DNA of 64,000 nucleotides from Candidatus Nomurabacteria bacterium (lineage in GTDB: Bacteria > Patescibacteriota > Minisyncoccia > Phycocordibacterales > UBA918). Below the pieces are notes generated by a model that was not told the origin of the DNA, did no database searches, and saw only the letters and a program-made list of their open reading frames with translations. The DNA is taken from assembly GCA_020632155.1 (NCBI GenBank), contig JACKGE010000002.1, positions 91,685-155,684 on the forward strand, read 5' to 3'. The position numbers and the translations under genes were made by a program. Below, piece after piece: positions 25,953-64,000 of the stretch (the first letter of the stretch is position 1; each line of letters begins with the position of its first letter).

Positions 25953-27602
25953 TTAGTTTGAAAGCTGATCGCGTCCGAGATAGATAACGATAGCAGGATT
26001 GGATTCAGTAGTGGTCTCGGTAGTGGCCGACGGGAGTGCTCCTCCAAGTACGCTACTAAGAGCAAGTGCGCTGTCAGTAAGCGCAGGGTCATAAACGATC
26101 ACGGAGCGCTTATCAATTCGACCAGCTTCAGTTGAAAGTGTTTGCACCGCATATCCTTTTGAAGCTAAACGGACTGCTGTCTCTGCCGCAACGCCGCTTT
26201 GGCCACTGGTGTTAACCAGCGTTATGGTAAATGGTTGGGTGGTTGACGCTGATAGGGTATTACTCTCACCGATTTTTTCACTTAAAATAATCTCTTCGGA
26301 GCTAAGATTTATTACCTGTGATGGATTTTCGATTGCCACTTCAAAACTGCGCGAATCAACAGTGACCGTTTTGATGTAGAAAAAGAGTCCGACAGCGATA
26401 GTGACAAGTACGGTAAACGCAATGAAGAAGCGGTTGTACGTTTTGATAAAACTAGACAAAGCGTGTGCTACATCAACTACACCGTCGACCTTATGAAACT
26501 GGGTGCGGAGATCCAAGAAACCGGTTCGAATCGGTGAGCTGATGGTTTGGTATGAACTGAGATTCACATCACCACGTGACACGTTTCGAGTTCTATCAGC
26601 GGTTGCTAAGCGCGAGTACGTCCCCGGAGCGACACCTGCCAGTGCTAACATCCGACGCACATATGAACGGATCGCCCAAACTATGAACATGACAATGAGC
26701 CCAACTATGAGTAGGGTCAACAGTAACGGCTTCAGGGGCACAACCCAAAATGTGACCTCACTGTCACTAAACTGACGCACGTCGTTACCGTACGCAAGCG
26801 CAACCTTGGCCGTGTATCTACCGATATCCGTAACTGAAAACTCACCTTGCCACGAGAATTGGAAGTTACGAATACTGTCTGGCAGAACGTTACCAAAGTG
26901 GGTCTGCAGATTAATAGGAATCACACCTCGCTCTTTGCCCCACATATTGTAAATAGTTATCTGTCCTTGTGGTTGAATATGTACATTGCCGCGATTTTCA
27001 AACCGAAGATCAAACTCAGCTTCAGGGCGTGTTGCAAAACGATTTGCAACCGAGAATGATCGTATTCTTCCGTCTTCGACCACATCTCCTTCTATCCGCA
27101 AAAAGAACAGTGATGTAACGATCTGGGACGTCCGTATCTCCAGTCGGTCGCTGCTTTCAGGTGGTTTGGTTCCCACAAGCACAGCCGCGAAGTGGCCGCC
27201 AGGGGCAGCGTCTTCGGGTACATCAATGGTAAACGGGATGGTCAGACTTTGTTCCGGTTCGATAGTGTAAGGTGTTTCAGGGTCCAGTTGTATCCACTCC
27301 GCAAGCGTACTGCCTTCGGTCACGTCCGAAAGAATGGGAACAAACTTTCCTTGCCCGCTTTCGCCACGTGGTGCAAAGTTGACCGGCCGCGCATAGACAG
27401 TAAGTGGAAACGTATTGGTGTTGATCACCTTGATGTTACTTTGCCACATCTGACCTTTGGTGGCAGACATCTCAAAAAGTGTCGGTGTGACCGACAATGA
27501 AAGCGACTCTTGCGCTACGGCACCTATTGGTACAAATGTGGCCAGTATAAAAGCCACTAATACATATAGTCTAACGCTTCTGTGTAAGGTCGATATCATG
27601 AT
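25953..27602 (-). CDS. DUF916/DUF3324-like surface domain + TM + LytR_C-like C-terminal domain
   Basis: Signal/TM, then a ~300-aa beta-rich region, then TM (PLLLTLLIVGLIVMFIVWAI), then a second TM. The C-terminus resembles LytR_C (TLVNTSGQSGVAAETAVRLASKGYAVQTLSTEAGRIDKRSVIVYDPALTDSALALSSVLGGALP). The start is set at the internal Met (MISTLHRS...) to avoid a 140-nt overlap with the upstream gene. Confidence 0.55.
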   Translation of the reverse strand: MMISTLHRSVRLYVLVAFILATFVPIGAVAQESLSLSVTPTLFEMSATKGQMWQSNIKVINTNTFPLTVYARPVNFAPRGESGQGKFVPILSDVTEGSTLAEWIQLDPETPYTIEPEQSLTIPFTIDVPEDAAPGGHFAAVLVGTKPPESSDRLEIRTSQIVTSLFFLRIEGDVVEDGRIRSFSVANRFATRPEAEFDLRFENRGNVHIQPQGQITIYNMWGKERGVIPINLQTHFGNVLPDSIRNFQFSWQGEFSVTDIGRYTAKVALAYGNDVRQFSDSEVTFWVVPLKPLLLTLLIVGLIVMFIVWAIRSYVRRMLALAGVAPGTYSRLATADRTRNVSRGDVNLSSYQTISSPIRTGFLDLRTQFHKVDGVVDVAHALSSFIKTYNRFFIAFTVLVTIAVGLFFYIKTVTVDSRSFEVAIENPSQVINLSSEEIILSEKIGESNTLSASTTQPFTITLVNTSGQSGVAAETAVRLASKGYAVQTLSTEAGRIDKRSVIVYDPALTDSALALSSVLGGALPSATTETTTESNPAIVIYLGRDQLSN

Positions 27603-28579: not shown

Positions 28580-31500
28580 TTAGAATACCGGTATAGCTAA
28601 GTATACAACGTCAGTACTATAGAGACCGGCCGGCTGTTCGTCAGTGATCTCCACCTTATAAATGATATTCGAACTGTCACTAGCTGGGAGTGAGCTATAC
28701 ATGACTTCGCGCGGCGTTGGTTCAAATGCGGCATAGCTGTCGGTAGGTGAAAACCGCGTGCTGGTGCCACTTAACGTGTCATCACCCGCGTGGTAACCAA
28801 AGCACCCGGTGGTTGAAGCGAGACAACCACTATTCCAACCAAGTGGCGCGTAGTTGGTTCCAAGAATAGCCGGAATAGTGCCACCATGACTACTCACGAG
28901 ATCACTGCGGGCATACATGAGTACTTGGTATCCTTCAGTGGCGTTGGTGGTAACACCAAGGGTATGGGCCGCTGTGACTTCTGTATCAAGTGGTAGTGAA
29001 CCAAAATTGACCATGGACGGTGTTGTGGTTGCGTCTGTGGTGACTCCTTCGGTGTTTGTTCCGGACGGTAGACCACTAACAGAAAACGAGAGGCTTGGTC
29101 CTTCAATCTGTAGACTCGGATAGCTGGAGCTAGCAACAAGTGGATCGTCGGTGGTAGCATCGACTAACCTGAAGTAATAGACCGCGCTGGCTCGCGCTGC
29201 CGCTTGTGCTAATGTAAATTCCATTTCGACACTGGTATTTGCGTCGTGGGTAAAGGTACTACTGGTAGTGGCCGCTTCGTTGTGTGTACCACAACCGGTT
29301 CCGCTACCGCCACTACAGCTTTCACTATCTGAAAGGACGTTAGCATCAATAAGTGCGTTATCAACGCCGGCGCCATCTGCATAACACCAGGTGGAAGTCG
29401 CGGTGCATGACGAGGTAGCTACCAAGGTTGTGCCTCCATCACTAAAATTAGCGTACTCAGAATACTGCAAGGCAAACTTGATATTACTACCGGCAGCTCC
29501 TTCTACCTCAGATGCAGTCACGCGCAGCTTGAGGATATCACCATCCGCTATTCCTGTCGGCGCAATATTTTCTCCGGCCAGTGAATTACTTGGTGTAAGA
29601 CTGGTCTCATCATCAAACCACTGCCAGTTACCTGAGACGGGTGTGTAGCCGGTGGTACGGAGTGTTGGGTAATACAAGTATTCGGACAACAAAGTTCCAT
29701 CGCTTTCAACCATTCGGAAACAATAGTCTGAGCGTTGGAGGGCGCCGTTGTGTTCCACTACCCAATCGTATTCAACGTCATCACCAAGAGTAGCGGCATT
29801 TGGGTTTACCAGTGAATTATTTTCCTCTTCATAGGTAGCTGCCACATCAGACACCGACAGCACTGTTGACGGGAGGGTTGTACCATCACTTGGAGTAGCG
29901 TTATAACCGCGCCAGATAGCACCACTACCGGCTGCGCCCACATCTGTCCACGACACAATAGCGCCGCACGACGCACCACTACGAAGTCCGTACTGTAATT
30001 TAAAGGCTTTGCTAGTCTCTGGAAATGCTGCATTCTTTACATTAAGTGACATGCGTAGCCGTACTCGCTCCCCCTCAGCGAGCGGATCATCGGTACCGGT
30101 AAGCTCCGCGTTTTCACCTAAGTCAGTTGCCCCGACCGGCCACGGGTCAGTTGGCGTCAAGGTGTCATTGTCGGCATAGATACGGAAATAATTTTGCGTG
30201 AACGCAAGTTGTGCTACCGGCCACTCGACGACAGAAACCTTGAAGTTTTGTGTTTGTCCCGCATCACTTTCATACAGTTCATACTCAGTGGTACTGGTAA
30301 CGGTAGTACCGAGCATCGCTCTTGGAAACGCCGTACCACTACCCGTACTGTCGTTAGTTATAAAAATAGAGGCATTACTGACACTACCGAGGGTACCGCC
30401 AAACGTAAACAGCGTCGTGCGCGGCTCAATAGCCTCGTTCCCATCAAGGCTCTCGTTGTTGTCATGGTATACCGTCATGGCGCCGGTGTTAAGTTGGGTA
30501 TTCTCAACAAGCCACGCCACTGAGACCTGTTCTGTGGGTTGGTTGGTACCACTGTTGAGTTGGAACGAGATGTTGCCTAAACTACTGAGCCACACTTGAT
30601 GACCATAATCGTCAAGACCGATATAATCGCCACCAATACGCTTTTGGGCATGGATAAACGCCTTATCAAGACCACCGACAGCAGTTATTGGTTCGGTCTC
30701 GGTCACACCAGCAGCACTATAGGTATGTTCGATGCGCTGCACTTTCCAATTGACGCCAGTAAACTCTACGACCGCGTAGCTGACATCAGTGATAGAGCTT
30801 TCACTGGTGGTTGCCCGAGTAAAGACCGGGACGTTTGACGTTGTGTCCCAAGCGGCGGTGTTTTGGTTGGCGGGAAATTCGTTTTGGTTACCATCAGAGC
30901 GCTGGCCAGTAATAAAGACCACGACATCAGCGTCGTCAGCTACTGTACTGACTGCAGTGCCGGTAGCAACAAGTCCGGTGGTGCCGTGACTGACTGTGCC
31001 GGTATCACGCACTACCATTTCATTATCAGAACCGGATAATCCGATGTACTCGACCAGCTCCCAGCTTACTCTGGTGTCGTTGGCTGCTCCGGAAGGACGC
31101 GCAACGGTAAAACTAGAGGTCAGATCGCTTTGATCCGATATGTACGCAGTTACGTTAACCGCTGTTTGTGTACCTTGCGAAGACGCACCGGCACCAGTCA
31201 GCTGGGAGTCAGTGATGCGCACAAATGCTGTTGAGGTACTGGCAGGCGGCGTGTAATCTACTCCGGCTACAAACGTGCGACTGGTTCCCGATATGAATTC
31301 GGTCTTACGCTGCACAAAGAAATCTTGTCGCTCGCGTGTAGTGAGTTCGCCATACTCTGTGTAGGCAGTGAGCGCACTGCCGCTGTCGGTAAGTCTAAAA
31401 CAGTAATCAGTACCGTAGGCCGATTGATCGGTTGCCATAATGGCAAATTCAAGTTCAGTGTACTGCGATGCTGAAAGAGTAAGCGAGCCGGTCTCATCAC

Positions 31501-34500
31501 TTACCTCTCGCTGTCCACCATTAGTGCCGAGAAACGTGCCCCCACCGTCAGTGACCCCACCATTTCCAGGACTGATATCAGTGGTGTCATTACCCTCCGT
31601 AAGCTGTGAGGTGGTGGCCATCGTGAACGCGGTACCACTGGCGATCCGCTGCCAGACCCCCACGGTGCTGCAGGTACCGACTTTGGTACCGTACTCTAGT
31701 CGATATGTGGTCCCGGCACTACTTACGCTGCCGGTATTCTCAACCCGAAATCGAAGACGATAGGGCGCATAGCGCGCCACATTAGGAAGTGGCGTGTTTT
31801 CTGTGCCGCCCGTTGCGGACGTGGCTCCTGTTTCGTCACCATTGTCGTTGCGCCAATGATAGCCCGTCTGAGTTAACACCGCTGCGTTTATTGTTGTACT
31901 ACCAGTTGGATCGACCGCACTACTAGGGCCTACAGAAGATGAGGTGACCACGACATCATTTGACGGGTCAGCAATAGTGACATTGACCGTGTTGCCATTG
32001 GCAGCAGCTGTATCTACATCTGCAACTACGTAGCCACAGAGTGTGTTAGTGCTATTTATGGTTACACTATCAGAAAAAGTGGACGTGCCGTTAGCACTAC
32101 CAAAACTCGACGCCGACCCGAACAGCGACTCAGTACCTGCGTATGATTCACTAGCGCAATCATACGGTGCGGAAGTATCAAGCTCATAATACAGACGGAT
32201 ATTTGACAGTTCGGTACTGGCGTCTGCAGTACCGTCTTCACTGATGGTGATGTCGGTCACGGTGCGATCACTGCCGGCACGAGTCACCACAAAAGTGCCG
32301 CCAAGATACTGGTTGCTGGTCCCGGCATTTATGCTGGCAGTAGCAGTGCCACTAGCAGTGACTGTGATATCAGCAGAAATGGTGCCCTCTGGGTACACTG
32401 AATAGTTACGTAGTGGCGTCCCTGCATCAGTCATCCGAAAACAGTAGGTTGTCCCTTGCGGCGAGCTGGCAGTCGGTTCGATCGCAAATTCGAGTTCCAA
32501 AAAGTTACTAGTACTGAACGTAAGCGCTCCGGCCTGTGAACTCGTATCTAACAGAGCGCCGTTTGGAGTCAAATGTGTACTGTTTTCGTTTGTGGTACCA
32601 CCACTTGCAGGCGCAAGATCACTACTGTCAGTGCTGTCTATCAAGAACAATGAATCTGACATGTCCCAGTCACCGCCGCCAGCACCAACATCCGTCCAGC
32701 CGGTGGCGGCGTCACAAGTAGAAGATTTAGCGGCGTACTCAAGTCGCAGGCTTACTGGCGCTGATGACGTAGAACCTTCTGCGGATATTTGGGTGCGGAG
32801 GCGACGAATGGTGCCGTTGGCAAAGCCGAGAGCTGGTGTATCTTCCGCCCCTTCAACTGATGTGGCGCTACCTTCAAGGCCATCATCATTAAGCCACTGG
32901 TAATGTACTTGGGTTAGCTCGGCATTTTGCAGCGTGACGCTCCCGGTTGGCGCAATACTAACAGCTGGCCCAATACTGCCACCACCGGTATAGGTTATAT
33001 CTGTGGTGGGGTCATCAATTGACACTTGTACGGTTTGTCCGTCACTAGCGCTACTGGTCACGTCATACACCACGTACGCACAAAGTGTTTGGGTGGTTGA
33101 AATGCCTACTGCTTCGGAAAAACTAGAAATACCATCAGCTCCAGAGAAACCGTTCGTGTCGGTGCTACCATACTGGCTTTCTGTAGAGGTACCAGAAAAC
33201 GATTCACTAGCGCAGTCATACGGAAATGAGGTATCAAGATCATAATAGACCGCAATATTGTTTACGCCGGTAGTACCATCCACTGTACCGGATTCGGTAA
33301 AGGTCAAACTAGTGATGTTACGTGCCGTTGAATTGGTTTTAATGGCAAATGAGCCACCAAGTTCATGGCTCGTCTGTGGTATATCAACCGTTGCTGTCTG
33401 TGTACCAGTGGCACTTACTTCCACATCATCAAGAAACAGTTTTGAGAGCTCAATACCTTGCAGTGCAATATTACCAGCCTCAAGCTCTGCATCAGCAGCA
33501 TCCTCTTCATCAAACATCGTTATTTCCAGATACTGGCTACTCGTGAGGCCCGGCAAAATAAGCCCTCCTGCTGAACCAGCGGCAAATGAGTCTTGACTAC
33601 CTTGGTTACCACGCAAGAAGCTACCGTGTCCACCGTATGGAACGGTAGTAGCGCCATCAAGTCGCCACTCAATACGATACGGGTCGCGGTCGCCAGAGGC
33701 AACATTTGATCGAGTAGCGTAGATGTTTGAAAAGAACAGGTAATCTCCATCAAGATCAATCTGCACTTGTGATGGGTTAGTACCGTTGGAGTGAGAAAAC
33801 GCAGCACCATCAACTTCAATTTCGCTATCAAAATCAAGCGGTGCCGCCGTACTCGGTACTGACTGTGAACTCGCTGAGGAAAGTGAAATATAATTGGCAG
33901 TATCAGGTAGGGCAACAATGGACACAGCCGTCTCCCCGCCAAAAATAACTGTGGTTGGCGGCGTACCGTCATCAGTGTTCTCTTGGCGGACTTCAACATT
34001 GAGGATCTCGTTGGTTGAGGTAGCCTTTTGAATGATGCCGGCGTACGCAAGTGTGCCGTAGTAGGTACCGCCACCACCACGGACATATGTAGTTACACGC
34101 GTGCCGGGGATCGCAACCCCGCCCAACGTAAGGACTGACTCGTAATTTTGTCGCTCCCCCGAGTTAGCGGTTTGGTGAATGCGGATGTTATATGTAACCA
34201 GAAAATGGTCTCCGGTATTTCCCTTAAGAGTCATATCGGCCCCCGAAGAATACCCGAACGTGTCAGTGTCCACTTCATCAATAGTATCCCACGTCACATC
34301 GGTAAACGAAGTGGTACCGGCAATATCACTGCTATCCGTGCCTTTACGAAGACGTAGATAATCGAGGTCATCTTTAAGTTTAAGGATTGAGACGCCGTTC
34401 ACACCGGCGCGTAACTGCGTCTGATTATCTGAACTGGTGTCGTCACGAGCGACATGAACGGTAAGTGTGTCATCAGCAGTAGCATCAATAATGGCGGTGC

Positions 34501-36724: not shown

Positions 36725-37468
36725 TTATCGTCGCCACGAGTCAGCTAATATTATAGAAAAGTCAGTAAAGTTCATGCGTTTGTCCTCATTAAAATCGTAA
36801 ATGATCTTTTTGTCGGTCCAAGCAGCCATAAACTGTAAAATGTCTGTCAACGTGACCTTCCCATCGCCATTGATGTCGGTATACACGCGTATTTCCGCCG
36901 TGGCAGTAAGGACTCCGTCTTCACCTTGAGCAACGATAACAACGCTTTTCTCCCCTACTTTAGTAGCAGCGACTTCAGTCCCTGAGCCATCTCCCGCCAA
37001 AAAAGCCACGTCACTGGCGGCAAACTGCGCAATACCGGTGGCCTTGGCCACAGCATTTATGGTGACGATCCTGTGTTCTCCCAAAAAACCGCGTCGGAAC
37101 GTGCCTCCGCTTAGATGGACGACGCCATTCTCAGCGTATGGTTCAGTGGTCCAAATAGTGATGACTGATTCTCCGGTATCAATACCGGTAATGGCCACTT
37201 TGTCTTCTGGGTACTCGAGGTCGATATTAATTGCATTGACCGGAACATGTGCACCAACAAATACATCTACACTAAATGGTTTACCGGCCTCAATAGTGGC
37301 ACTTGAAAACTCCAGGCGCATGTAAGACGCGTCACTCGGCAAAATAACTGCTGCTCCTATGAGCGAGAAAGCGGTGACAATAAGCGGAAACGCGTACCGC
37401 ACCGTTCGACTACGGTTAGTGCGGCAGGAAAAGCAAAATCGATAAATGATCCGTTGGAGCCATTTCAT
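36725..37468 (-). CDS. membrane-anchored protein with cohesin-like domain and C-terminal type-I dockerin
   Basis: The dockerin duplicated Ca-binding segments are YTDINGDGKVTLTDILQFMAAW and DFNEDKRMNFTDFSIILADSW. The upstream beta-sandwich region has a cohesin-like pattern (SVDVFVGAHVPVNAINIDLEYPEDKVAITGIDTGESVITIW). Confidence 0.65.
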   Translation of the reverse strand: MKWLQRIIYRFCFSCRTNRSRTVRYAFPLIVTAFSLIGAAVILPSDASYMRLEFSSATIEAGKPFSVDVFVGAHVPVNAINIDLEYPEDKVAITGIDTGESVITIWTTEPYAENGVVHLSGGTFRRGFLGEHRIVTINAVAKATGIAQFAASDVAFLAGDGSGTEVAATKVGEKSVVIVAQGEDGVLTATAEIRVYTDINGDGKVTLTDILQFMAAWTDKKIIYDFNEDKRMNFTDFSIILADSWRR

Positions 37469-44824: not shown

Positions 44825-44848
44825 TTATCAAAAAAAAACCGCAAAAAC

Positions 44849-44883: not shown

Positions 44884-44900
44884 GACAAACGAGCTGCGGT

Positions 44901-54200: not shown

Positions 54201-57200
54201 TTGTATTGATCACTGCCGAGAGATTTACTGTTAACGCTGTATGCATTGGCACCATCGAGGTACAGCGTGCTGCCCGTCCACGTGGTGGCGGAACCACCAA
54301 GATTATTAGTAAAGACACCGCCGACATACATCGTAGTTCCTGACTGCTGGACATAGGCAGTTGCAGCCGACAGAGTGAAGTTGTTGGTAGTGGTCGCGTC
54401 AGTTTGCATGGTCCAACTACCGGTACCAGAGACAACCAAGTTATAGAAGTCGTTGCCTCCAGGATAGATGTTTTTACCAGCACCAGAAGAATTAAAGAGG
54501 ACCGTACCCGAAGCGTGCGCAAAGGTGCCGGCAGTAGCATCAAACGAACCGCCAACTGACAAAGTACCAACAGCAGATGTAAAGGTGCCAGTGCCGAGAG
54601 TAAGACTACCACGCAGGGTTGCACTGGTGTCGAGTACCGTAACATCACTACCGCCGGAAACAACAACAGAGCCAAGGTCAGAGCCACCAAATTGCAGTGA
54701 AGTGGCGCCCGTAGCTCGGTAGAGATCAAGTGTATTGTTGTTATACGTAACCGTACCAGCGTTACTGAAGTTGCCCCCGACCGCGTAGATACCACTTGGC
54801 AACGTAAGACTTCCTGCAGAGATGGTCACATTGCCGGTTGAAGTGGCGTTGGTGTCAGGCATGGTCCATGCGCCACCCGTACCAGCAAAGGTGGTAGTAG
54901 CGAGGTCAGAACCACCAAGACGAACTACGTTACCCCCACTAGTGGCGGTAAAGATCATCGGTGAGGCACTGGCGTCAAAATTACCGCCGGTATTGTTAAG
55001 CGAACCAGAAAGAGTAGTGGTACCGGTTGGTAAGGTAAGGTCACCACTGGCGATCGAAAGGTCATGAGCAGTTAAACTTGAGTCAGTAACAGACCAATCT
55101 CCACTACCGATAAAGTCAATATCGTAGAAACTGTCGTTGTTCACATCTATGGTCTCGCCACTTTGGTCAGAGGTAAACTCCACGGTTGAGTTAGCAGCTT
55201 CAAATGACGCCCCGGCGTTTGCGGTAAACGAGGCTCCGACCGACAAAGTGTCGCTGCTGCTCATAGTGAGAGTGGCGCCGTTATAAAGCTGGAGCGCACC
55301 GTCGTAACTTGAACCTCCTCCCCCGCCACTTATAGTCACGTCACCGCCCGGATCAAAACTCTTGTTGGTCCAAACAATGAGCTTGTGGTCAGCCGGTAGC
55401 GTTAAGCTGTCGGTGCCGGCATCTACTGCTGTAAATGGTATATCACCGTCATCGGAAGAGTCCCAGACTGCCATATCTTCGATGTTGATTGCACTGATAT
55501 TTTCGTGCCGTACGATCACCCGCTGCTCGTAGATATCCATATTACTGATATTGGATATCGGATCGACCGATACCGTTGCGCCACTACCAACTCCATTATC
55601 AATGTAGACAGTGAGTGTATCGTTTGGACTAAAGGAGATACCACTAATACTGTACGCTCCGGTACCAACAGCACAGCTGGTGGTGTATGAAGTCAGACCA
55701 GCCACTCGTAAGTGTACGTTTTGTGTTACACCATTACAGATACCAACACCAGACGCGGTACTACCTTCATCACTGTAGACATGGCCGGAAATGTTGATGA
55801 CCGCCGCTGAGTCGTCCCATACAATTTCACCCGGATCACCACTGTCATTATCATTTCCTTCACCATCAAAACCACCACTATGGTTCGTAAAGCGCCAGCT
55901 ACTGACACTGATGCCACTTACCGTTACGTTGCTGGCACCACTGACCCCGCCGCCGAGACGGAAGATGTTGTTGGTAAAGTTCTTGGCCGGATTTTGATCA
56001 ATAACTGAACCGGCAACAGTCATACTACTGGCGCCGTTTAGGTCCGCTGACAAGTCAGTAAAGCCGAGAGTGGTTACGGTTGGGGTGCCGGTAAACGAGA
56101 GACCAGTACTGTCGATATTGCGGATTGATACGTACTGCCAAGTGGTGCTGGCTGTGCCCCCGACTGTAAGACCATAGGTACCCGACCCTTGGTTAGTAAT
56201 GGTAGTGGTGGCAGTAGTAGTGCCCTTTACTGAGAGTGTCCCGCCGGTGTATGTGGCGCTGGCGCCACTGGCAAACTGGACATCAGCAACACGCGGACTA
56301 CCACTAATGTCCGCACCATCAAAGTCGGTGAGGTAACTCCAATGATCGCTGTCACTCGCCTGCATGTAATCACCGTAGATATGTAAGAGTCCATCACTAC
56401 CGCCATGGTCCATCGAGTAAAGACCACCGCCTGTTTCGGTCACAACGCTACTGTACGTGCTGTCCCAGAACTTTGCGCTGGTACCACTGACAATATGTAC
56501 CGTGTCATAACTGTCTCCTACCCCTTTTGGATTGACTGTGAATCCACCACCAAAGAGACTGAGCGTACTGCCGGTCCACGTAGTACCGCTGTCTCCCGTG
56601 TTGTTAGTAAAGGCGCCGCCAACCGCTAGGGTCGTACCACTTTGGGCCACAAAGTTTGAGCTGGTTGCCAAGGTCCACGCGCCAGTTGAGGTAGCGTTTT
56701 CAGTCAGTGTACCGGTGCCGGAGCCGGAGAGCGTCACTCTACCAAACGAAGCACTGCCCGGTGCGATCGAGTAGGCATCGCTGCTGACGAATTCAACGAG
56801 GCCGCCCGACACAGTAAAGCCGCCGTCGTTATCATAACTACCCGAAAGCTGTAAGGTATTACTACTGCTTTCTATATAGGTACCATTGGCACGAACTGTC
56901 ATATCCCCGCCGACTGCTACTAGTGGATCGAGGGTATTGGCGTTGACAGTAGTGGTAGTAGCACCGCCAATAGACAGGTTATGTACGATGTTGATACCGG
57001 TTGAACCAAGTATGACCGTTTGTGGAGACAACTCAGCATTAAGATCAAGATTGTAGTAGTTCATTGGGTAAACCGTGCCCGAACCGCTATACCGAACCGT
57101 ACTGGTGTCGTATGAAATCGAACCGTTGTTTACCACTACGGTACCATTGCCACGCAAGTTCCAGCCGCCACTGCCGAGAAGGAGTGTATGACCACTTTGT

Positions 57201-60200
57201 GTTCGCAGCACGCTGGTAACGGTAGTAGTAGCGGTGCTAGCTCTCGTTGTTGTTCCGACCAGACTGCCATTACCAAAGGTCAGACTGGCAAAGGTCCACG
57301 GTGTGTTGCCGCCAAAGGTGTTGGTTTGCTGTAGTGTCACCGTACCACCGGTCATTGCTACTACTCCATCACCGGCCATAGAACCGCCACTAATAGAAAT
57401 ATTGCCGGAACCAGTTAGCGTACCGTCGGTAACAGTGACATCGTGGGCCACCGAGAGCGTAGCGGCGTTGGTCCACTCTCCCCCGCTACCATTGAAGGTG
57501 ACGTCATACAAGTTCTGTGTTGATGATGCGCTAATGAAGTGTCCGGTCGTGGTTGCATTAAAGAGCACGAGCGACGTACTCGGACTAAAGAGTGCCCCAC
57601 TCTCTGCGCGGTAGTTGCCACCAATGGTAAGGGTCTCACCGGCCGCCGCTTCAAACGACGCTGTCGGTGCCAAATGAAGTGATCCGTCATAGGCGCTCGG
57701 TGTACTATTGCCGAGTAACGTTGTATCACCGTCTGGCGCAAAGGTCATACCATCCCACACGTATAACTCGTTGCCGGCAAGGACAGTCAGCGTATCTGGC
57801 GCGCCCACGCTTGCCACAAACGGAATATCAGAGTCATCGGTAGCGTCAAAGAGGGTCATATCTGCGATCGTTAGCGGTGTGTCATCTTCGTGTCTGACAA
57901 TCACCCGATCCCCATAGAGGTCGAGTCCACCAATAGTGTTGGTGTCGGGACTATCAGGCTTAAGCGCAAACTGCATGGAGTGTGACTCACTGCCCGTACC
58001 ACCGGCAGTGATCTCAGAATCACCGGTTGCTCCGGCAGTAGTCATGAGCCGTGAGGCCACACTGAGGTCATTACCACCGCTGACAATGTCTTCAGCTACC
58101 GTTGTCCACGCGCCGCCCGGCATATTGATATTGCTATCTCCGTCCATGTACCAAACCGCGATTGCCAGGGCATTATGTACCGTTGTCGTGATACTTGGTG
58201 CGCTTGGAGATGCATCATTGGCATGATTGGTCCATGAACCTTCGACATCAAATGGGTCTCGAAGGTCAACCCCATCAAATGAACCCATCCAGTAGCTATA
58301 GTTTTCTGTACTGGTGTCATTTGAGGTAAAGGTGTAACTGGTTGGTTCAGTTGAGACATCGTCAACAGTGCGATACCACAAACGGCTGTAGATAGTGCTA
58401 CCACTTCCACTTGGCGTTACGCCTTCTGGACCTGGTGTCCAACCGGCTGGTGCAGAGATATCAAACTCATCGTCTTTACCGATTATGAGTACGAGGAAAT
58501 CATCTTGAGCAGTTCCTGGGCGGTCCACAATGAACGTGCTGGCAGCGTTAACACTGCCAATACCAGTACTGCTGAAACGAAGTGAGACATCAGCTGGGGT
58601 CGTATCAACCACATTGATAATCGGTGTACGGGTGACCACCGCAGCGCTCGTAGTACCACCACCGTAACTAGCTCGCTTGAGGGCAAATTGGCCGGAGTTG
58701 GTATCGTCTGAAGTAGCATCGATGGCGGAGAGGCTGGCATTACCGGTCACTCCGGCGGTAGCCATAAGACGAGTTGCAATACTAAGGCTGTTTCCGCCAT
58801 TGACGATATCCTCAGTTTGCGTGGTCCATGAACCACCCGGCATAGTGACATCGGTATCATTGTCTACATACCATGCAGCAATAACCAGCGAACCATTTGT
58901 GACCGTAGTGATAGAGGTAGCTGCCGGTGTCTGGGTATTGAGCTGTGTTGTCCACGTCGGTGTGACATCAAATGGGTCACCGAGGTCTACTCCACTAAAC
59001 GATCCAATCCAGTAACTGTAACTTTCGGTGTCAGTATCAGCCGAGGTAAAGGCGTACGCAGTTGGTTCAGCTGTGACATCAACCACCGGCTTATACCAAA
59101 GACCAGTAAACTGTTGGTTGTTGTTTGGGAGTCCAAGTGTATCGGCTTCAGTCCAGCCAGCTGGTGGATCAATAGCCAAGTCGTCATCTTTACCAAAGAC
59201 AGCGACAAGAATATCACCATTACTGACACTTGGGCGGTCAACGATTACTGTACCTCCACTGACAACAGTGCCGCTTCCTGAGTCTTGATCTTGCAAGGTA
59301 ACCGCACTTGGATCAGCGGCGTACGCGTCATGGTCAAGGTATACCGTTACCTTTGGATCACCTTCATAAGACACATCACGAACGGTATAGCTACCATCTT
59401 CAGGACTACAGGCAGCACTGGTGGTGCTACTGCCGTCGATGACCACGGTCACCACCGGTGAAAGTCCGTCACAAGTTGGAGCGCCAAGTGGTGTACTGCC
59501 ATCATCAGCATAGACCACACCGGTCACGGTAATACTGTGCTGACTATCGTCCCACTGAATAGCTCCGGGGTCGCCATCATCGTTGTCATACAGCTCACCG
59601 TAGGTGTCGCCACTGCCGTTTCGCATCCACCAGTATGAGCTGGCAAGGCCACTGAGCGTCACGTTAATTGGGCTGGTACCACTGGCAACAAAGCCGAGAC
59701 GGAAGAACTGTTGCGCTGGATTATTATCAATGACATCGGCAGCTACTGTCATGGCGCTACTGCTTGTGCCGATGGCAAACGTACCGTCAGCGATATCAGT
59801 CACCGTTGTGGTGCTACCACCAAGTTGCCAACCGTTACTGCCAAGACCGGAAAAGGCAAAGTACTGCGCAGTGATAGTACTGCCAAAGGTGGTGAGGTCA
59901 AATGCACCATCTATAGCTTCAATGGTGGTTGACGCCCCGCCGTCACCAACCAAATTAAAGCCGTACGGCAGCGTAAGCGCTGAGCTACTAGCGATATAGA
60001 CCGACACCGCTCGCTCGCTACTGCTGGCACTAAGATCCGTACCGTCAAAATCAGTGGCATACGACCAGTATTCCGTAGCGCCACGACCGTCATAGTCACC
60101 ATATATATAGAGAAGGCCATTACTTCCGCCATAGTCGGGCAGATAGAGCGAACCAGTATCTAAGACACTGCTTGAAGCAATGGTGGTATTCCACATGACG

Positions 60201-63200
60201 ATGTCAGCATCTTGCTCTACCACCACTGTGTCATACACATCTCCAGTTGAACTTTTGTCATGAACTGTATGATCATTGCCATAGAGTCGCAAGGTACTAC
60301 CGGTCCATGTGGTAACACTGGCAATATCATTGGTGAAATTGCCACCAACACTTACCGTTGCGCTACTACTGGCAGTGAAATCATTTGCAGCAAGAAGGTC
60401 GAGGTTGTTAGCGGCGTCAATATTTTCGGTCACCGTCCAGCCACCACTTGGATTATTAAAGGAGAGGTCATAAAAGACATTACCGCCGGCAGCTACCGTC
60501 TCGCCGGTATCATTACTATCAAATATCACCGCTCCGGTACCAGCTTCATACAGACCCTGCGCCAGGAATGATCCAGCAATAGTGAAGTTGCCCGACGGAC
60601 CAATAACTTGCACTGAGCCGATAGAGACGTCACCAATAACATCAACACTGACATCGGTAAGTGTCAGACTGTCAACAGCACCAAAACCGGAACTGGTGGC
60701 ATAGAAGGTAGTAGGACTGCCTTGATTTATATATTCCGCATTGACCCACGCAGACGGCCTCGTGGTAGTGGCAAATCGAAGCTCGTCAATATAGCCGTTG
60801 TAGCTACCAGCAGTGGTGTAGCGTCCGACTTCAAGCGGACCAGTGTTAGACGGGTTATTGACGGTCTGATTAATGACACCATTGGCAACTCCATCCTCAA
60901 ACATGTACATATTAAGACCGGACGTTACCTCACCCATGTTAAAGAAGTGATGCCAGCCGGCGGAGTGACTAAAGGAGTAACTATAGGTACGGCCGAAGTA
61001 GAAGTACGCAGCTGAGCCACTGTACCATGGCATGAATGAAATACGGTTTGGTGTGGCTCCGGTACCCCACTGGTACACACCTTCGGTGTTAGAAGTCGTT
61101 TGATAGTACCAACCGGATGAGACGATATTGTCTCCCCCGCTCCACGCCCAGTCGCTATCGTCAAGATATCCACTGGCGGTGCCGGTAAGATCAAGGGCAG
61201 AACCCATAGTACCGGTTGTAGTGGCTTGTCCGGTACCATTGGCGGCAAGGTCTTTCCCGTGACCGGAAGCATCAACTGCCCCCACACTTGGGTCATCTTC
61301 AAAGTGATACACTGCTTCGTATTCGCTCCAAACGGCATAGGCACCATACGGATCACTGGCTGCGTAACCACTGGCGGTACTGTTGTTGTGATAGATATAG
61401 AAGATGGTATCAGAGACGTTGGAAATAGATGGAGCCAAGAAGTGAAGTTCTCCTGTCATGGCAACCGGATCGAACGAGACCAACTCATACGGCACTTCAG
61501 TTTGACCATCACTGGTGGTAATACGTATGTCGCCACCATCAGTGCGAACCTCGCTCCAGAAACTACTACCCAGTGTAGAGAGATCCACATACACGGGGAA
61601 ATTAGTCAGTGACGAGGAGATGTTGGCTGAATCAACAGTGATACCTTTACGCGATAACCATGAAGTGTCATACCATCCAAATGATGCTGCTAACGATCCG
61701 AAGATCACGTCATTAAATGACGATCCATTAGTACGGATGGTCTGATCTGCATTCGGCAAAAATCGTACCAGTGCGCTGTTTGCATCAAAGGCGCCGCCGC
61801 CAGTGACATTAAGTCCTCCGCGGATAACGAGAGTGGTATCAGGGAATGTTACATCACCATTACTGATGACCATACTACCGCTTGTGGTTGCATTACTGTC
61901 AGTAAAGGTCCAGTCACCACTACCCGAGAACGTAACGTTGTACAGCTGGTTGTAAAGTGACGTACCAAGAAGTGTTACCACCTCACTGCCACTACCGGTC
62001 ATTTGCAAGGTGGCGTTGTTGTGGAGGAACGTACCACCGGTATTAAGGAACGAGCCACCAACACTGGTGATACCAGACGGCAACGTAATGGTACCGGTAG
62101 CGATAGTGAGGTCACTGAGTACCGTGAGGTTGGCTTCGGTGAAGTAAATATCAGTATCAGGATCATTGAAGGTAAGCTGATAGAATGACGAGCCATTGGT
62201 CTTAATGATGTGACTAGCACTCGCGCTGCTATCTCCGGGGTCATACGTCTCGACACTGCTAGTGGCGTAAAAAGTAGTTGGGGTCTTTTGACTCACATAC
62301 TCAGCATCGATCCAGGCTTCCGTACGACTCGCCATAGTGAAGCGAAGTTCATCAATATATCCTTCATAGGAACCGGTAGTACCTTGTCGACCGATCTGCA
62401 AGTTACCACTATTGGCGGTCCCCGCCACTGTCTGCGTGACTGTATCACGCAAAATGCCATCTTCATAAATGGTGTTTGAAGCCCCACTAGCAGCAAAACC
62501 TTGTGTGGTGAAATGATGCCAACTAGTGACACGCGCGAAGGTATAGGTGGCCCCACTCGTTACACCAAAGTAATGGAGTCCGTTATCGCCCGAATACCAC
62601 GGCCGAAACTCAATGCGATCTGGGCTGTTAGTGGTACCCCACGCCCAGAGAGCTTCGTTACTGGCGGCTGATTGGTAGTACCAACCGGATGAAGTCAGAT
62701 CGTCTCCGCTGGTCCATGACCAATCGGTGTCATACATAACGCCAGTAGCCGTGCCAACAAGACTAAGAGCAGAACCTAACGCGCCGGTTGTGGTCGATTG
62801 ACCGGTACCACCTGGAGTGAGATCTTTACCATTTCCAGACGCATCCGGCACCTCAACAGTTGGATCGGCTTCAAAGTGGTACACCGCTTGATACTCGGTC
62901 CAGACAGAGTATGCTCCGTACGGATCGCTATCCGAATAACCAGCAGCTGAGTTATTGTTGTAATACACATAGAACGTTGTGTTAGTGGCGCTCGAAAGTG
63001 ACGGCGCTAAGAAGTGAAGTTCACCCGTTTCGGTGCCGGTATTAATGGCAACTAGGTCTATCGGTACTTCCGTTTGTCCGTCTCCTGTGGTCATTCTGAT
63101 ATCGCCACCGTCTGTGTTTACGTTACTCCAAAAACCACTGCCGAGTGTAGAGAGATCCAGATAGACTGGGAAATTGGTGAGATCACTATCGATCTGACTC

Positions 63201-64000
63201 GCTTGGATCGTCACCGCTTGTCGCGAGACAAAATCAGTATCACTATACCAATCGGTAGATCCAGGGTCGCCAGGAGCGTACGTGCGGTCATCTGGTACAA
63301 AGATCACGTGACTGGTCTGTGGTGAGAAGGTATGGTTGTTGGTCCAGTCACCACCAACGGAAATGGTGTGGGTGCCGCCGCCAGAAAGTGTGTCATCCGC
63401 GCCAATAGTGACGTCATACGCTTCAACATCAGTAGTAATGACTACGTTTTTAACCGAACCATTTACCACTACATCACCGATATTTTGTTTAACAGCGTTA
63501 TTATCCGTCCACTGGGCGTTTGCAGTACCATCAAAGGTAGTGGTACCCGTACCGCTCCAGTAGCCACTGGCGCCGGTTGTGAGATGGCGGGCGACGGTAA
63601 TACTAGAAGATGATCGATCAAAAGTTCCATACGTTACAAACAGATCGCCGTTAACATCAACTGCATCAAACGTCTTCCAAGTAGCTGTACCACTGCCCTC
63701 GCCAAACGTGAGACTACCAAACGACAGCAGGCCTCCGGCGTCATCAATGGTTTCGCTGGTGCTGGTGGCAGTGAATATGACTGGGCTAGCGGTCGAGACA
63801 AAAGTGCTGTTGTTCTGCCACGAACCAGAAACACGGATAGTATTACTGTCAGAATCAATATAGCCATCGTTTACAATATCGTGAACAGTGACATTTCCAC
63901 TACCACTTGCATCAGGTACATACACGTTACCAGCGCCGATGTATAGACTATTGTCAGCACAACTACCAACCGCACACAGTGTGAGATCATTATTGCCATC
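51227..64000 (-). CDS. giant secreted multi-module protein (at least 4250 aa; N-terminus lies beyond the window end): beta-helix-like repeats, three DUF2341/LamG-like jelly-roll units, other duplicated modules, and a conserved C-terminal module
   Basis: The ORF track gives 51227-63925 using a GTG, but the frame stays open to position 64000, so the gene is truncated by the window. Three internal units resemble DUF2341/LamG pairs (SDLTNFPVYLDLSTLGSGFWSNVNTDGGDIRMTTGDGQTEVP...; SSLTNFPVYVDLSTLGSSFWSEVRTDGGDIRITTSDGQTEVP...; RLRNNDNTTYATTSVLVTVPYDADMQADFDDLRFTDSSGTPVSYW...), assigned from memory. A ~180-aa module is triplicated (WSY[AL]TDFDG[AT]D...IQWDDS), as are G/T/S-rich beta-helix-like stretches. 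The C-terminus ends ...EVYWGIAIPFGTASNPHTGNNTFYAIGD. Confidence 0.85.
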   Translation of the reverse strand, partial: DGNNDLTLCAVGSCADNSLYIGAGNVYVPDASGSGNVTVHDIVNDGYIDSDSNTIRVSGSWQNNSTFVSTASPVIFTATSTSETIDDAGGLLSFGSLTFGEGSGTATWKTFDAVDVNGDLFVTYGTFDRSSSSITVARHLTTGASGYWSGTGTTTFDGTANAQWTDNNAVKQNIGDVVVNGSVKNVVITTDVEAYDVTIGADDTLSGGGTHTISVGGDWTNNHTFSPQTSHVIFVPDDRTYAPGDPGSTDWYSDTDFVSRQAVTIQASQIDSDLTNFPVYLDLSTLGSGFWSNVNTDGGDIRMTTGDGQTEVPIDLVAINTGTETGELHFLAPSLSSATNTTFYVYYNNNSAAGYSDSDPYGAYSVWTEYQAVYHFEADPTVEVPDASGNGKDLTPGGTGQSTTTGALGSALSLVGTATGVMYDTDWSWTSGDDLTSSGWYYQSAASNEALWAWGTTNSPDRIEFRPWYSGDNGLHYFGVTSGATYTFARVTSWHHFTTQGFAASGASNTIYEDGILRDTVTQTVAGTANSGNLQIGRQGTTGSYEGYIDELRFTMASRTEAWIDAEYVSQKTPTTFYATSSVETYDPGDSSASASHIIKTNGSSFYQLTFNDPDTDIYFTEANLTVLSDLTIATGTITLPSGITSVGGSFLNTGGTFLHNNATLQMTGSGSEVVTLLGTSLYNQLYNVTFSGSGDWTFTDSNATTSGSMVISNGDVTFPDTTLVIRGGLNVTGGGAFDANSALVRFLPNADQTIRTNGSSFNDVIFGSLAASFGWYDTSWLSRKGITVDSANISSSLTNFPVYVDLSTLGSSFWSEVRTDGGDIRITTSDGQTEVPYELVSFDPVAMTGELHFLAPSISNVSDTIFYIYHNNSTASGYAASDPYGAYAVWSEYEAVYHFEDDPSVGAVDASGHGKDLAANGTGQATTTGTMGSALDLTGTASGYLDDSDWAWSGGDNIVSSGWYYQTTSNTEGVYQWGTGATPNRISFMPWYSGSAAYFYFGRTYSYSFSHSAGWHHFFNMGEVTSGLNMYMFEDGVANGVINQTVNNPSNTGPLEVGRYTTAGSYNGYIDELRFATTTRPSAWVNAEYINQGSPTTFYATSSGFGAVDSLTLTDVSVDVIGDVSIGSVQVIGPSGNFTIAGSFLAQGLYEAGTGAVIFDSNDTGETVAAGGNVFYDLSFNNPSGGWTVTENIDAANNLDLLAANDFTASSSATVSVGGNFTNDIASVTTWTGSTLRLYGNDHTVHDKSSTGDVYDTVVVEQDADIVMWNTTIASSSVLDTGSLYLPDYGGSNGLLYIYGDYDGRGATEYWSYATDFDGTDLSASSSERAVSVYIASSSALTLPYGFNLVGDGGASTTIEAIDGAFDLTTFGSTITAQYFAFSGLGSNGWQLGGSTTTVTDIADGTFAIGTSSSAMTVAADVIDNNPAQQFFRLGFVASGTSPINVTLSGLASSYWWMRNGSGDTYGELYDNDDGDPGAIQWDDSQHSITVTGVVYADDGSTPLGAPTCDGLSPVVTVVIDGSSTTSAACSPEDGSYTVRDVSYEGDPKVTVYLDHDAYAADPSAVTLQDQDSGSGTVVSGGTVIVDRPSVSNGDILVAVFGKDDDLAIDPPAGWTEADTLGLPNNNQQFTGLWYKPVVDVTAEPTAYAFTSADTDTESYSYWIGSFSGVDLGDPFDVTPTWTTQLNTQTPAATSITTVTNGSLVIAAWYVDNDTDVTMPGGSWTTQTEDIVNGGNSLSIATRLMATAGVTGNASLSAIDATSDDTNSGQFALKRASYGGGTTSAAVVTRTPIINVVDTTPADVSLRFSSTGIGSVNAASTFIVDRPGTAQDDFLVLIIGKDDEFDISAPAGWTPGPEGVTPSGSGSTIYSRLWYRTVDDVSTEPTSYTFTSNDTSTENYSYWMGSFDGVDLRDPFDVEGSWTNHANDASPSAPSITTTVHNALAIAVWYMDGDSNINMPGGAWTTVAEDIVSGGNDLSVASRLMTTAGATGDSEITAGGTGSESHSMQFALKPDSPDTNTIGGLDLYGDRVIVRHEDDTPLTIADMTLFDATDDSDIPFVASVGAPDTLTVLAGNELYVWDGMTFAPDGDTTLLGNSTPSAYDGSLHLAPTASFEAAAGETLTIGGNYRAESGALFSPSTSLVLFNATTTGHFISASSTQNLYDVTFNGSGGEWTNAATLSVAHDVTVTDGTLTGSGNISISGGSMAGDGVVAMTGGTVTLQQTNTFGGNTPWTFASLTFGNGSLVGTTTRASTATTTVTSVLRTQSGHTLLLGSGGWNLRGNGTVVVNNGSISYDTSTVRYSGSGTVYPMNYYNLDLNAELSPQTVILGSTGINIVHNLSIGGATTTTVNANTLDPLVAVGGDMTVRANGTYIESSSNTLQLSGSYDNDGGFTVSGGLVEFVSSDAYSIAPGSASFGRVTLSGSGTGTLTENATSTGAWTLATSSNFVAQSGTTLAVGGAFTNNTGDSGTTWTGSTLSLFGGGFTVNPKGVGDSYDTVHIVSGTSAKFWDSTYSSVVTETGGGLYSMDHGGSDGLLHIYGDYMQASDSDHWSYLTDFDGADISGSPRVADVQFASGASATYTGGTLSVKGTTTATTTITNQGSGTYGLTVGGTASTTWQYVSIRNIDSTGLSFTGTPTVTTLGFTDLSADLNGASSMTVAGSVIDQNPAKNFTNNIFRLGGGVSGASNVTVSGISVSSWRFTNHSGGFDGEGNDNDSGDPGEIVWDDSAAVINISGHVYSDEGSTASGVGICNGVTQNVHLRVAGLTSYTTSCAVGTGAYSISGISFSPNDTLTVYIDNGVGSGATVSVDPISNISNMDIYEQRVIVRHENISAINIEDMAVWDSSDDGDIPFTAVDAGTDSLTLPADHKLIVWTNKSFDPGGDVTISGGGGGSSYDGALQLYNGATLTMSSSDTLSVGASFTANAGASFEAANSTVEFTSDQSGETIDVNNDSFYDIDFIGSGDWSVTDSSLTAHDLSIASGDLTLPTGTTTLSGSLNNTGGNFDASASPMIFTATSGGNVVRLGGSDLATTTFAGTGGAWTMPDTNATSTGNVTISAGSLTLPSGIYAVGGNFSNAGTVTYNNNTLDLYRATGATSLQFGGSDLGSVVVSGGSDVTVLDTSATLRGSLTLGTGTFTSAVGTLSVGGSFDATAGTFAHASGTVLFNSSGAGKNIYPGGNDFYNLVVSGTGSWTMQTDATTTNNFTLSAATAYVQQSGTTMYVGGVFTNNLGGSATTWTGSTLYLDGANAYSVNSKSLGSDQYNILSIGANSDIRLWNSSALTTTVDGSSSLYSQRHAGVNGSLFIFGDFHISTTTEYWSYATDFDGTSITPRAVTVQIAGGATTTVDGGTLNIVGGSGNATLITNQGSGTYTLGVTSGTLNANYYQFRNLDANGLDLSGTPTISNLSNGDFELAVSGGSLITLATETLNANASKIFTGMRFATTTAITGINVNLAATSSNAWRFTGHTGNLAGEDFDIDGTDDCGSIRWEDSACLLIEQTHYRWRLDDGGEGAPDSDWYDNGWTKRASVRLRNNDNTTYATTSVLVTVPYDADMQADFDDLRFTDSSGTPVSYWTERVNAGSDAEVWVSVPSLPASAYTTLYMYYGSSTVDTASDGDAVMNFIDDFEDGSLSEYSGDTGLFTVGTSFNYGGNYGLDTSGHESDRATDGVFQTGNLVAQGEVIRYRQYVDATAGAADEVCTLFGVQTPGTNNNNYGICFELYGTDRVSLVKNVIDTESSGTILASSTLTYTTGWYDVRVDWQTDDTISITVYDPTDSVAATLSVSDSSYTTGGMGFTYWGMNGGWDSYISYPRVTTDPTVYLGAEQTAGGASWAAAIDTPASAYQVGDVARLRFAVENSGLDITGQQFQLEAAPKGASPSCEAVGSGSYSAVPVLASCGSSAICMATSSTVTNNQTTTDHLSDVNGTFTTGRIVANTANKSTSIDTLQNEYTELEYVLTPTVNVADEAYCLRVTNDGTELDSYTSVAELSLQFSPTFGAVTLNGGNDIDLAIGATTTIYATATVTDLNGYADLITATSTIYRSGAGAACTADNNSCYISTAPQCSFSACAGSSCTLSCAADIYYFADPTDSGSTYDGQEWLAYLEVVDGSGNIAFGSAPGVEMLTLRALDVENSISYGSLAVNDDTGSYNATTTLVNLGNDDLDVQIVGSDLSDGSGSTIDASQQRFATSTFDYSSCVYCTNLATTSTNYEVDLGKPTAVTPPVEDEVYWGIAIPFGTASNPHTGNNTFYAIGD

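Follow-up and report, generated by a model that had tools for sequence, protein, structure and literature searches.

A conserved Paceibacteria surface-protein locus with features of a Pam-type pilus system and giant candidate adhesins

The DNA analysed here is a 64-kb stretch (hereafter the window) from a Candidatus Nomurabacteria bacterium, a member of Paceibacteria, the largest class within the candidate phyla radiation (CPR). Its 38-kb block between positions 25953 and 64000 holds 16 consecutive minus-strand open reading frames (ORFs), counted when at least 100 amino acids (aa) long, and is probably a Paceibacteria variant of the Pam-type pilus system of CPR bacteria, enlarged with giant adhesins. 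Two kinds of C-terminal domain, named type A and type B below, are each shared by a small and a very large secreted protein of the block. The type-A domain resembles the C-terminal domain of Pam pilins, and the same block encodes three membrane-anchored, chaperone-like paralogues. For CPR bacteria, a dependence on being physically attached to a host is assumed, by means that are not known for most of them; the Pam pilus was described in 2026 from one Saccharibacterium. A role of the locus in surface attachment, as put forward in the original prediction for this DNA, is plausible. That prediction had counted 18 genes where we find 16, and had taken the organism for a CPR-like bacterium, in agreement with the 100% identity of the 334-aa product to H6783_03170 of Candidatus Nomurabacteria. 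The features of the locus are the following (TM, transmembrane; ABC, ATP-binding cassette; NBD, nucleotide-binding domain; Ig, immunoglobulin):

51227-64000, minus: giant secreted protein (≥4257 aa, cut off at the 5′ end by the window edge); DUF2341/LamG-type modules, repeats, type-B C-terminus
49622-51121, minus: secreted FN3 protein, 499 aa; ~4 FN3/purple-acid-phosphatase-N-type domains, no TM anchor
48051-49373, minus: ABC ATPase, 440 aa; NBD at residues 1-230, helical C-terminal extension at 231-440
46836-48044, minus: type VII ABC permease, 402 aa; MacB_PCD and FtsX, 4 TM helices
44901-46751, minus: 616-aa secreted protein; Cys/Thr/Ser-rich, type-B C-terminal domain
44848-44884, minus: terminator-like hairpin 3′ of the 616-aa gene; 16-bp stem and T run
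43850-44824, minus: 324-aa chaperone-like protein; signal peptide, two Ig-like (PapD/ASH-type) domains, C-terminal TM helix
42731-43846, minus: 371-aa secreted dockerin protein; Cys-rich DUF4215, Big_6 Ig domains, C-terminal type I dockerin
42705-42737, minus: terminator-like hairpin of 15 pairs, followed by an intergenic region of ~390 nt upstream of the 387-aa gene
41174-42337, minus: 387-aa secreted two-domain protein (39 kDa); CPR_Pam_pilin_C-like C-terminal domain
39888-40982, minus: 364-aa protein; signal peptide, cohesin-like domain, Ig domain, C-terminal TM anchor
38138-39895, minus: 585-aa cohesin protein; signal peptide, cohesin, Big_13 Ig domains, TM helix, charged cytoplasmic tail of ~75 aa
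37465-38127, minus: 220-aa protein; N-terminal TM helix, helical ectodomain, matching no known family
36725-37468, minus: 247-aa protein; signal/anchor segment, cohesin-like domain, type I dockerin
35025-36617, minus: 530-aa protein; N-terminal anchor, long Asp/Glu-rich region, weak TolB-type beta-propeller repeat matches
28580-34954, minus: 2124-aa secreted repetitive protein; no Pfam match, type-A C-terminal domain
27571-28575, minus: 334-aa chaperone-like paralogue; signal peptide, two Ig-like domains, TM helix, 'HDIDL' tail
25953-27710, minus: LytR_C-fused paralogue of at most 585 aa; signal peptide, two Ig-like domains, TM helix, cytoplasmic loop, second TM helix, extracellular LytR_C

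With the exception of the ABC ATPase, all products begin with a hydrophobic segment that is a signal or an anchor (the N-terminus of the giant lies outside the window), as anticipated for a locus of almost exclusively secreted or membrane-anchored proteins, and five products have a C-terminal TM helix. The FN3 protein was found as expected. At E ≤ 0.01 Pfam returned nothing for the 2124-, 616-, 530-, 387-, 364-, 324- and 220-aa proteins, and the 334-aa protein gave sub-threshold CARDB/DUF4832 matches only. Neither a C-terminal LPXTG signal nor the sortase TLxTC motif was found in a motif search of the whole window, in line with the absence of sortase and LPXTG proteins noted before; anchoring by this route was rejected on that ground.

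Shared C-terminal domains of small and very large proteins

Pam pili were described by cryo-electron microscopy as filaments of the Saccharibacterium Ca. Mycosynbacter amalyticus, built of PamA (55.3 kDa) and PamB (38.7 kDa) joined by donor-strand exchange (Troman et al., bioRxiv 10.64898/2026.03.03.709456). These pilins, the 2nd and 9th most abundant proteins of the cell, consist of N-terminal strands, a linker strand plus a C-terminal domain, and they are best conserved around the linker and in the domain that follows it. The pam operon also encodes PamC and PamD, which are FimC/PapD-like chaperones with a C-terminal TM helix, the RbmA-like TM-anchored terminator PamR, the further pilin PamE and the tip protein PamT. 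No dedicated trans-envelope machine was found, and the preprint concludes that none is needed. ATP synthase genes recur near pam operons, whose distribution is mainly in Saccharimonadia and Microgenomatia (same preprint).

The 387-aa protein of the window (39.1 kDa, close to the mass of PamB) matches the NCBIfam model NF058581 (CPR_Pam_pilin_C) with 18.3 bits (E 0.0019) and does not reach the cut-off of 55 bits. The same model is matched, also below threshold, by 50 of the 56 members of its family (best E 1.3e-6) and is by far the commonest family matched. An AlphaFold2 model (predicted local distance difference test, pLDDT, 88) shows a signal helix, nine strands at residues 44-185, a strand at 199-205 and a beta domain at 238-385. 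This appears to be the layout of PamA and PamB as they have been described, and the 387-aa protein is, like them, conserved above all around the linker and in its C-terminal domain. Its gene looks monocistronic, with terminator-like hairpins on both sides. Among the terminators listed in the original prediction, those at 44884-44848 and 42737-42705 are strong hairpins and a weaker one lies near 41150-41120. Such bracketing is consistent with a structural gene that is expressed separately and at a high level. We propose that the 387-aa protein is a PamB-like major pilin.

The leader of this gene has a peculiarity of its own. A motif of ~15 nt, CTAATACAACGTAGAG, directly precedes the start codon of 387-type genes and is conserved in most of 30 species, in which the proteins encoded downstream are only 45-60% identical and the remaining leader diverges (for example in loci L055, L041, L008 and L034). 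The window carries the variant TAATACAACGAGAGC (42338-42360, minus strand), and a motif search found no second copy within the window. The motif may serve translation, or act as a leader signal, in a gene whose expression is very high.

Linker and C-terminal domain of the 387-aa protein, which make up its final ~190 aa, are homologous to the last ~170-190 aa of the 2124-aa protein (type A). The type-B domain connects the other two proteins: in the 616-aa protein the final ~310 aa correspond to the C-terminus (last ~270-310 aa) of the giant (BLASTP; hhalign 99.9%). The 616-aa protein had been regarded as a relative of the 2124-aa protein, an assignment that these comparisons overturn, as its relative is the giant and the 2124-aa protein pairs with the 387-aa protein. 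No relatedness between the two domain types was detectable (hhalign probability ≤10%), and their homology was set aside as lacking significant support.

The two very large proteins are present at the sizes announced, the giant (predicted to have at least 4250 aa) as an ORF of at least 4257 aa that runs off the window at position 64000. The giant is internally highly repetitive and has at least four matches to DUF2341, its only Pfam family. Its orthologues are 5708-7004 aa long; a metagenome scan found no relatives of the most N-terminal 300 aa lying in the window. The 2124-aa protein is likewise built of large internal repeats. In the 616-aa protein the most conserved segment is the mature N-terminus ('TTSVTV.N'), and we propose, from size, pairing and conservation pattern only, that it is a pilin-like subunit of PamA size. 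The giant and the 2124-aa protein are proposed to be adhesin subunits. Because they share the C-terminal domains of the 616- and 387-aa proteins, respectively, they would be incorporated into fibres or nucleate them.

Membrane-anchored chaperone-like paralogues

The original prediction named three paralogues, each combining a signal peptide with a TM helix at the C-terminus, one of them fused to LytR_C, and both statements hold. A broad profile of the 324-aa family matches all three Ig-like/TM anchor proteins, with E-values of 5e-91 (324-aa protein), 1e-14 (LytR_C-fused protein) and 6e-6 (334-aa protein), which identifies them as paralogues; the LytR_C domain of the third is recognized by Pfam with an E-value of 3.9e-10. 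The AlphaFold2 model of the 324-aa protein (pLDDT 88) places two beta-sandwich domains between a signal helix and a C-terminal TM helix and has a loop of low confidence at residues 134-142. Foldseek relates it to WxLIP bound to long WxL (9i25_C; 3.9e-8), to FimC, PapD, DraB and SafB (~1e-7; TM-scores 0.40-0.44) and to RbmA chains (1.3e-7). The most conserved parts of the protein are its first strands and the strand GAVSISLGAQVDIDL that follows loop 134-142, with alternating hydrophobic residues. In PapD-type chaperones, pilin subunits are capped by the A1 and G1 strand positions. The conserved strands of the 324-aa protein display the pattern that would be expected of such donor positions, and we propose that it is a membrane-anchored chaperone, PamC/PamD-like and WxLIP-like.

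In the WxL/Csc clusters of Lactobacillales and Bacillales, WxLIP is composed of DUF916, DUF3324 and a TM helix, and strand complementation between WxLIP and WxL has been predicted for the Firmicute clusters (PMC10599100, PMC9772566, PMC1534035; PDB 9i1y, 9i25). The DUF916/DUF3324-like architecture claimed earlier for the paralogues is borne out by the fold and by weak sequence matches. WxLIP_PGBD (DUF916) is the top-ranked Pfam family for the 334-aa family, weakly matched by 41 of 66 members (best E 8.8e-7); the window's own 334-aa protein gives no match to it at E ≤ 1. Matches to WxLIP_HBD (DUF3324) are sporadic (1 of 56 and 2 of 78 members of two family sets). The chaperone family profiles did not match the sequence of 9i1y, and comparison of the family profiles with PDB sequences gave chance-level or generic matches only, none of them to WxLIP, WxL or Pam, the search libraries lacking the Pam entries PDB 25PZ and 25QA.

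The tail that follows the TM helix of the 334-aa protein (27571-27680) contains five residues, S321, H326, D327, I328 and L330 ('HDIDL'), that do not vary among 66 homologues. Such invariance implies that a contact in the cytoplasm is conserved, and it supports a TM helix inserted into the membrane of the bacterium itself, contrary to the insertion into the host membrane that has been proposed for WxLIP. The ORF of the LytR_C-fused paralogue (25953-27710) overlaps its neighbour by 140 nt and its true start is therefore probably downstream of 27710. This protein is proposed to be a wall-linked anchor or terminator, a candidate counterpart of PamR. A wall-binding SH3b fusion is found instead of LytR_C in 15 of 78 remote members of the chaperone family. 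The whole chaperone-like superfamily amounts to 1064 clusters at 50% identity.

Conservation of the locus, its ABC pair and its cohesin-dockerin set

Homologues of the 324-, 387- and 334-aa proteins, counted at E ≤ 0.001 in a collection clustered at 90%, number from 187 to at least about 1370 each, with 40-76% identity among the matches listed. Those with a name come nearly all from metagenome-assembled genomes (MAGs) of Nomurabacteria, Kaiserbacteria, Paceibacterota and other Patescibacteria, a few MAGs being labelled otherwise, and for nearly all of them no Pfam domain is on record. When GTDB was scanned with one genome for each species, the 324-aa family turned up in at least 185 species, which suggests that a system related to Pam is present in Paceibacteria.

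Co-conservation in relatives, which the original prediction had named as a check, was observed: gene order is collinear in all 39 species-representative loci with full 10-kb flanks. The conserved order is giant C-terminus, FN3, ATPase, permease, 616, 324, dockerin-371, 387, 364, cohesin-585, (220), 247, (530). The downstream half is syntenic in a relative, where it encodes proteins of 534 aa, 1840 aa, 336 aa and 553 aa, the last with LytR_C. The genes for redoxin, tgt and uvrB also lie beside the cluster in a relative, in an order that is not identical. In a 1.08-Mb relative (L003), the locus has taken up an insertion sequence (IS; rve integrase) with an asparaginase gene and, at another place, a NUDIX gene (990-3049 and 12616-13053), the order of the other genes being undisturbed.

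In distant lineages the association is reduced to a smaller module. A chaperone-like protein, ~25% identical and fused to SH3b, is encoded directly after one or two 616-type genes of ~560 aa (E 1e-98 to 1e-121) in L085 (8268-11476), L088 (1-11371) and L089 (2175-11126). A large DUF2341/LamG protein ending in a type-B domain adjoins them in two of three distant lineages. These loci have different genomic surroundings, with no ABC, FN3 or cohesin genes nearby. L085 and L086 have only the pair of 616-type and chaperone-type genes, in a ribosomal-gene context, which in L085 places the pair directly after the rplK-rplA-rplJ-rplL block. A chaperone-type gene adjoins the 616-type genes in every lineage examined.

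The MacB/FtsX exporter with an extra ATPase domain that had been predicted is confirmed, with Pfam scores above the cut-offs for MacB_PCD (71 bits), FtsX (66 bits) and ABC_tran (113 bits). The pair resembles type VII ABC systems (MacB, LolCDE, FtsEX, YtrEF; PDB 9o9x, 5lil, 7arh) in its combination of MacB_PCD and FtsX, its 4 TM helices and its separate NBD. It differs from them by having no MacA/TolC partners, as no locus protein matches an HlyD/membrane fusion protein (MFP) or TolC family of Pfam, and by the additional conserved domain of ~210 aa on the ATPase. The closest solved relative of the permease is YtrF of B. subtilis (1.3e-32), with MacB and LolC/E/F as further PDB matches; the B. 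subtilis Ytr pump is implicated in cell-wall thickness. Identity with FtsEX was rejected, the permease having MacB_PCD and not the FtsX extracellular domain and matching YtrF best. No other products of the locus are as well conserved as the two ABC proteins (75-87% identity; 92% for the NBD across species). The ATPase extension (~231-440; 48051-48680) is 68% identical, and the length of 440 aa is kept in 35 of 41 proteins (the window copy and 40 orthologues). It matches no Pfam family and no PDB sequence.

A cohesin domain is recognized in the 585-aa protein (38138-39895) with 39.5 bits (cut-off 24.1) and, by hhalign (97-99.8%), a cohesin-like domain is common to the 364-, 585- and 247-aa proteins. 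The same dockerin is found in the 247- and 371-aa proteins (Dockerin_1; 31.6 and 27.2 bits, cut-off 22.9). The announced set of three cohesin-like and two dockerin proteins is thus complete. Its layout, with anchors (cohesin and TM helix), an adaptor (cohesin and dockerin), as which the 247-aa protein is proposed to act, and a cargo (dockerin), is that of a cellulosome. It differs in its anchoring by TM helices and not by SLH domains or sortase, in the single cargo encoded, and in the absence from the locus proteins of glycoside hydrolase families and of any carbohydrate-binding module above the Pfam cut-off. A cellulosome proper was rejected, as the locus encodes no enzymes of this kind.

Competing explanations, proposed assembly and genomic surroundings

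Three other explanations of the locus were weighed against a Pam-type pilus. It could be a static display of WxL type, in which each large or small protein is held singly by its C-terminal domain on a WxLIP-like protein and no fibre is formed. Small and large secreted proteins that share a C-terminal domain, beside a two-Ig/TM anchor protein, are what defines a WxL cluster; the weak WxLIP_PGBD matches of the 334-aa family agree with this, and wall-binding fusions exist, LytR_C here and SH3b in the remote members. The shared domains are, however, of other families than WxL. No member of either C-terminal-domain family matches the Pfam WxL domain, and for the 387-type domain it is the Pam pilin model that is matched. 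Conservation of the linker strand is strong, as would be expected if it is donated. The window has no LPXTG protein, the proteins are several times larger than those of WxL clusters and the locus belongs to a CPR bacterium instead of a Firmicute. We consider a static display unlikely.

The original prediction favoured the MacB-type ABC pair as a dedicated machine that extracts, exports or assembles the giants by extracytoplasmic mechanotransmission. In 38-39 of 39 Paceibacteria loci the pair has the giant/FN3 genes on one side and the 616-aa gene on the other, it surpasses all other products of the locus in conservation, and its ATPase has the family-specific extension of 210 aa. Cytoplasmic tails are conserved in several of the TM proteins encoded here, 'HDIDL' being an example, and the solved relatives MacB, LolCDE, FtsEX and YtrEF act on extracytoplasmic substrates. 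Against this role stand the distant modules of giant-, 616- and chaperone-type genes, which have no ABC genes between or beside them, the Sec signals on all substrates whose N-terminus lies in the window, the lack of a MacA-type adaptor in the locus, and the Pam preprint, which requires no trans-envelope machinery and names no ABC genes. The position of the pair is itself weak evidence, as housekeeping flanks are also kept in a relative. The claim is weakened by these observations to a rather improbable one. Because the ABC pair is missing from the minimal module of other lineages, the evidence argues that it is a lineage-specific accessory and not the core handling machine; with its uncharacterised ATPase domain, this highly conserved pump is a candidate accessory.

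Least probable, and in our view very doubtful, is that independent surface genes (adhesins, a mini cohesin-dockerin scaffold and a wall-homeostasis pump) are merely juxtaposed and kept together by the high synteny of CPR genomes. The shared direction of transcription is no argument against it, since the whole window is transcribed from the minus strand: the unidirectionality stressed in the original prediction is real and not peculiar to the cluster. The housekeeping genes that flank the cluster in a relative, the internal terminator-like hairpins that divide it into several transcription units, and the IS element, asparaginase and NUDIX genes that were inserted in one relative without disrupting it all count in favour of juxtaposition. 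It does not account for C-terminal domains common to large and small proteins, for large, small and chaperone-type genes that stay adjacent in distant lineages with different surroundings, or for cohesin and dockerin partners that are both encoded in the locus.

The Pam-type reading itself meets several difficulties. The score of the 387-aa protein is far under the curated cut-off of the Pam pilin model. The type-B domain, which the 616-aa protein has in common with the giant, shows no detectable relationship to the 387-type domain and matches no Pam, WxL or Pfam model. A single-domain, PamT-like tip protein was not identified in the locus. The preprint, in which Pam is mainly a system of Saccharimonadia and Microgenomatia, mentions no giants with pilin domains, cohesin/dockerin proteins or ABC genes. 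Finally, the housekeeping flanks are kept as well, which makes collinearity within Paceibacteria weak evidence of a functional linkage. These points weigh against the assignment.

In its favour, the locus and pam share a Sec-exported two-domain pilin-like protein of ~39 kDa accompanied by a larger one, PapD/FimC-like proteins with a C-terminal TM helix and similarity to RbmA, the absence of usher and sortase, a CPR host, and ATP synthase genes nearby. In the window, atpG, atpA and their neighbours are located at 184-5623, ~20 kb from the boundary of the locus. The differences are the host class (Paceibacteria), the 616-aa/giant subunit type without detectable similarity to Pam, pilin-type C-terminal domains on two very large proteins, one with 2124 aa and one with more than 4257 aa (reaching 7004 aa in relatives), the fusion of a chaperone paralogue to LytR_C (SH3b elsewhere), and the cohesin/dockerin, FN3 and MacB-type ABC genes embedded in the locus. 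Similarities to chaperone-usher systems (Pap/Fim/Csu) are the two-Ig chaperone fold, a candidate donor strand with alternating hydrophobic residues and an adhesin whose C-terminal pilin-type domain is homologous to a shaft subunit, as in FimH and PapG. The locus differs from them in lacking an outer membrane and usher (no usher-type family appears among the Pfam/NCBIfam matches of its proteins), in the membrane anchoring of its chaperones and the two domains of its subunits, and in showing no sequence similarity.

Assembly of a Pam-type pilus by the locus could proceed as follows. Every component would be exported by Sec through its N-terminal signal peptide. The 387-aa (PamB-like) and 616-aa (PamA-size) proteins would be fibre subunits with incomplete C-terminal Ig-like domains, which the PapD-like 324-aa, 334-aa and LytR_C-fused proteins would first cap. 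Capped subunits may then polymerise by donor-strand exchange, for which the conservation of linker and C-terminal domain is indirect support. The 2124-aa protein and the giant would enter or nucleate the fibres as adhesin subunits, in the manner of FimH and PapG with their pilin domain, with the giants possibly at the tip and in contact with a host. The LytR_C-fused paralogue (SH3b-fused in other lineages) would tie the base to wall and membrane, and the two TM-anchored cohesins, the cohesin-dockerin adaptor and the dockerin cargo, which are lineage-specific additions like the ABC pair, could form a second, non-covalent docking layer. Export and retention of the giants had been considered unexplained by known systems, which no longer applies: apart from the ATPase, the products whose N-terminus lies in the window bear Sec-type signals or anchors, and Pam and WxL/WxLIP systems already use membrane-anchored PapD-like proteins. 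The scheme offers a testable route by which giant adhesins can be mounted without sortase, type I secretion system or outer membrane.

The core of the locus is probably a member or variant of a kind known from the June 2026 preprint only, and it resembles WxL clusters. The original prediction had named identity with a described locus such as WxL as grounds for its refutation, and this applies in part, the membrane-anchored PapD-like proteins being as in Pam and WxL/WxLIP (PMC10599100). Our literature search found nothing relevant on WxL in Patescibacteria, cohesin/dockerin in Parcubacteria, giant proteins or Paceibacteria surface clusters. New with respect to that literature are the presence and strict conservation in Paceibacteria, the giants with pilin-type C-terminal domains, the wall-binding chaperone fusions, the cohesin/dockerin set, the MacB-type pump, and the link by sequence and fold of the chaperone-like proteins to WxLIP/DUF916. 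WxL and DUF916 are both unmentioned in the Pam preprint, and the link points to an evolutionary connection of Pam chaperones with WxLIP, which in Firmicutes belongs to WxL clusters for virulence and adhesion. A bolder combination, to which we attach only a small probability, is that Paceibacteria build Pam-type fibres in which proteins of 2,000-7,000 residues are true subunits, that their chaperones are homologous to WxLIP (DUF916), and that the ABC pump is a mechanotransducer of assembly, release or wall passage. If it were true, WxL clusters and Pam pili would be one ancient monoderm pathway, a 'chaperone without usher'.

The remainder of the window (1-25.9 kb) is occupied by housekeeping genes, among them atpG, atpA, ddl, uvrC, uvrA, uvrB, tgt and gdh. 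An Rfam scan of the window identified two tRNAs and nothing else. They are tRNA-Ala genes (anticodons UGC and GGC) at 5860-6112, divergent and ~100 nt apart, and the one on the plus strand is the sole plus-strand gene identified in the window. Also outside the locus, an 866-aa ORF (13864-16464) has as its sole family matches weak ones to repeat regions of the Myxococcus adhesion proteins CglD and MtsD.

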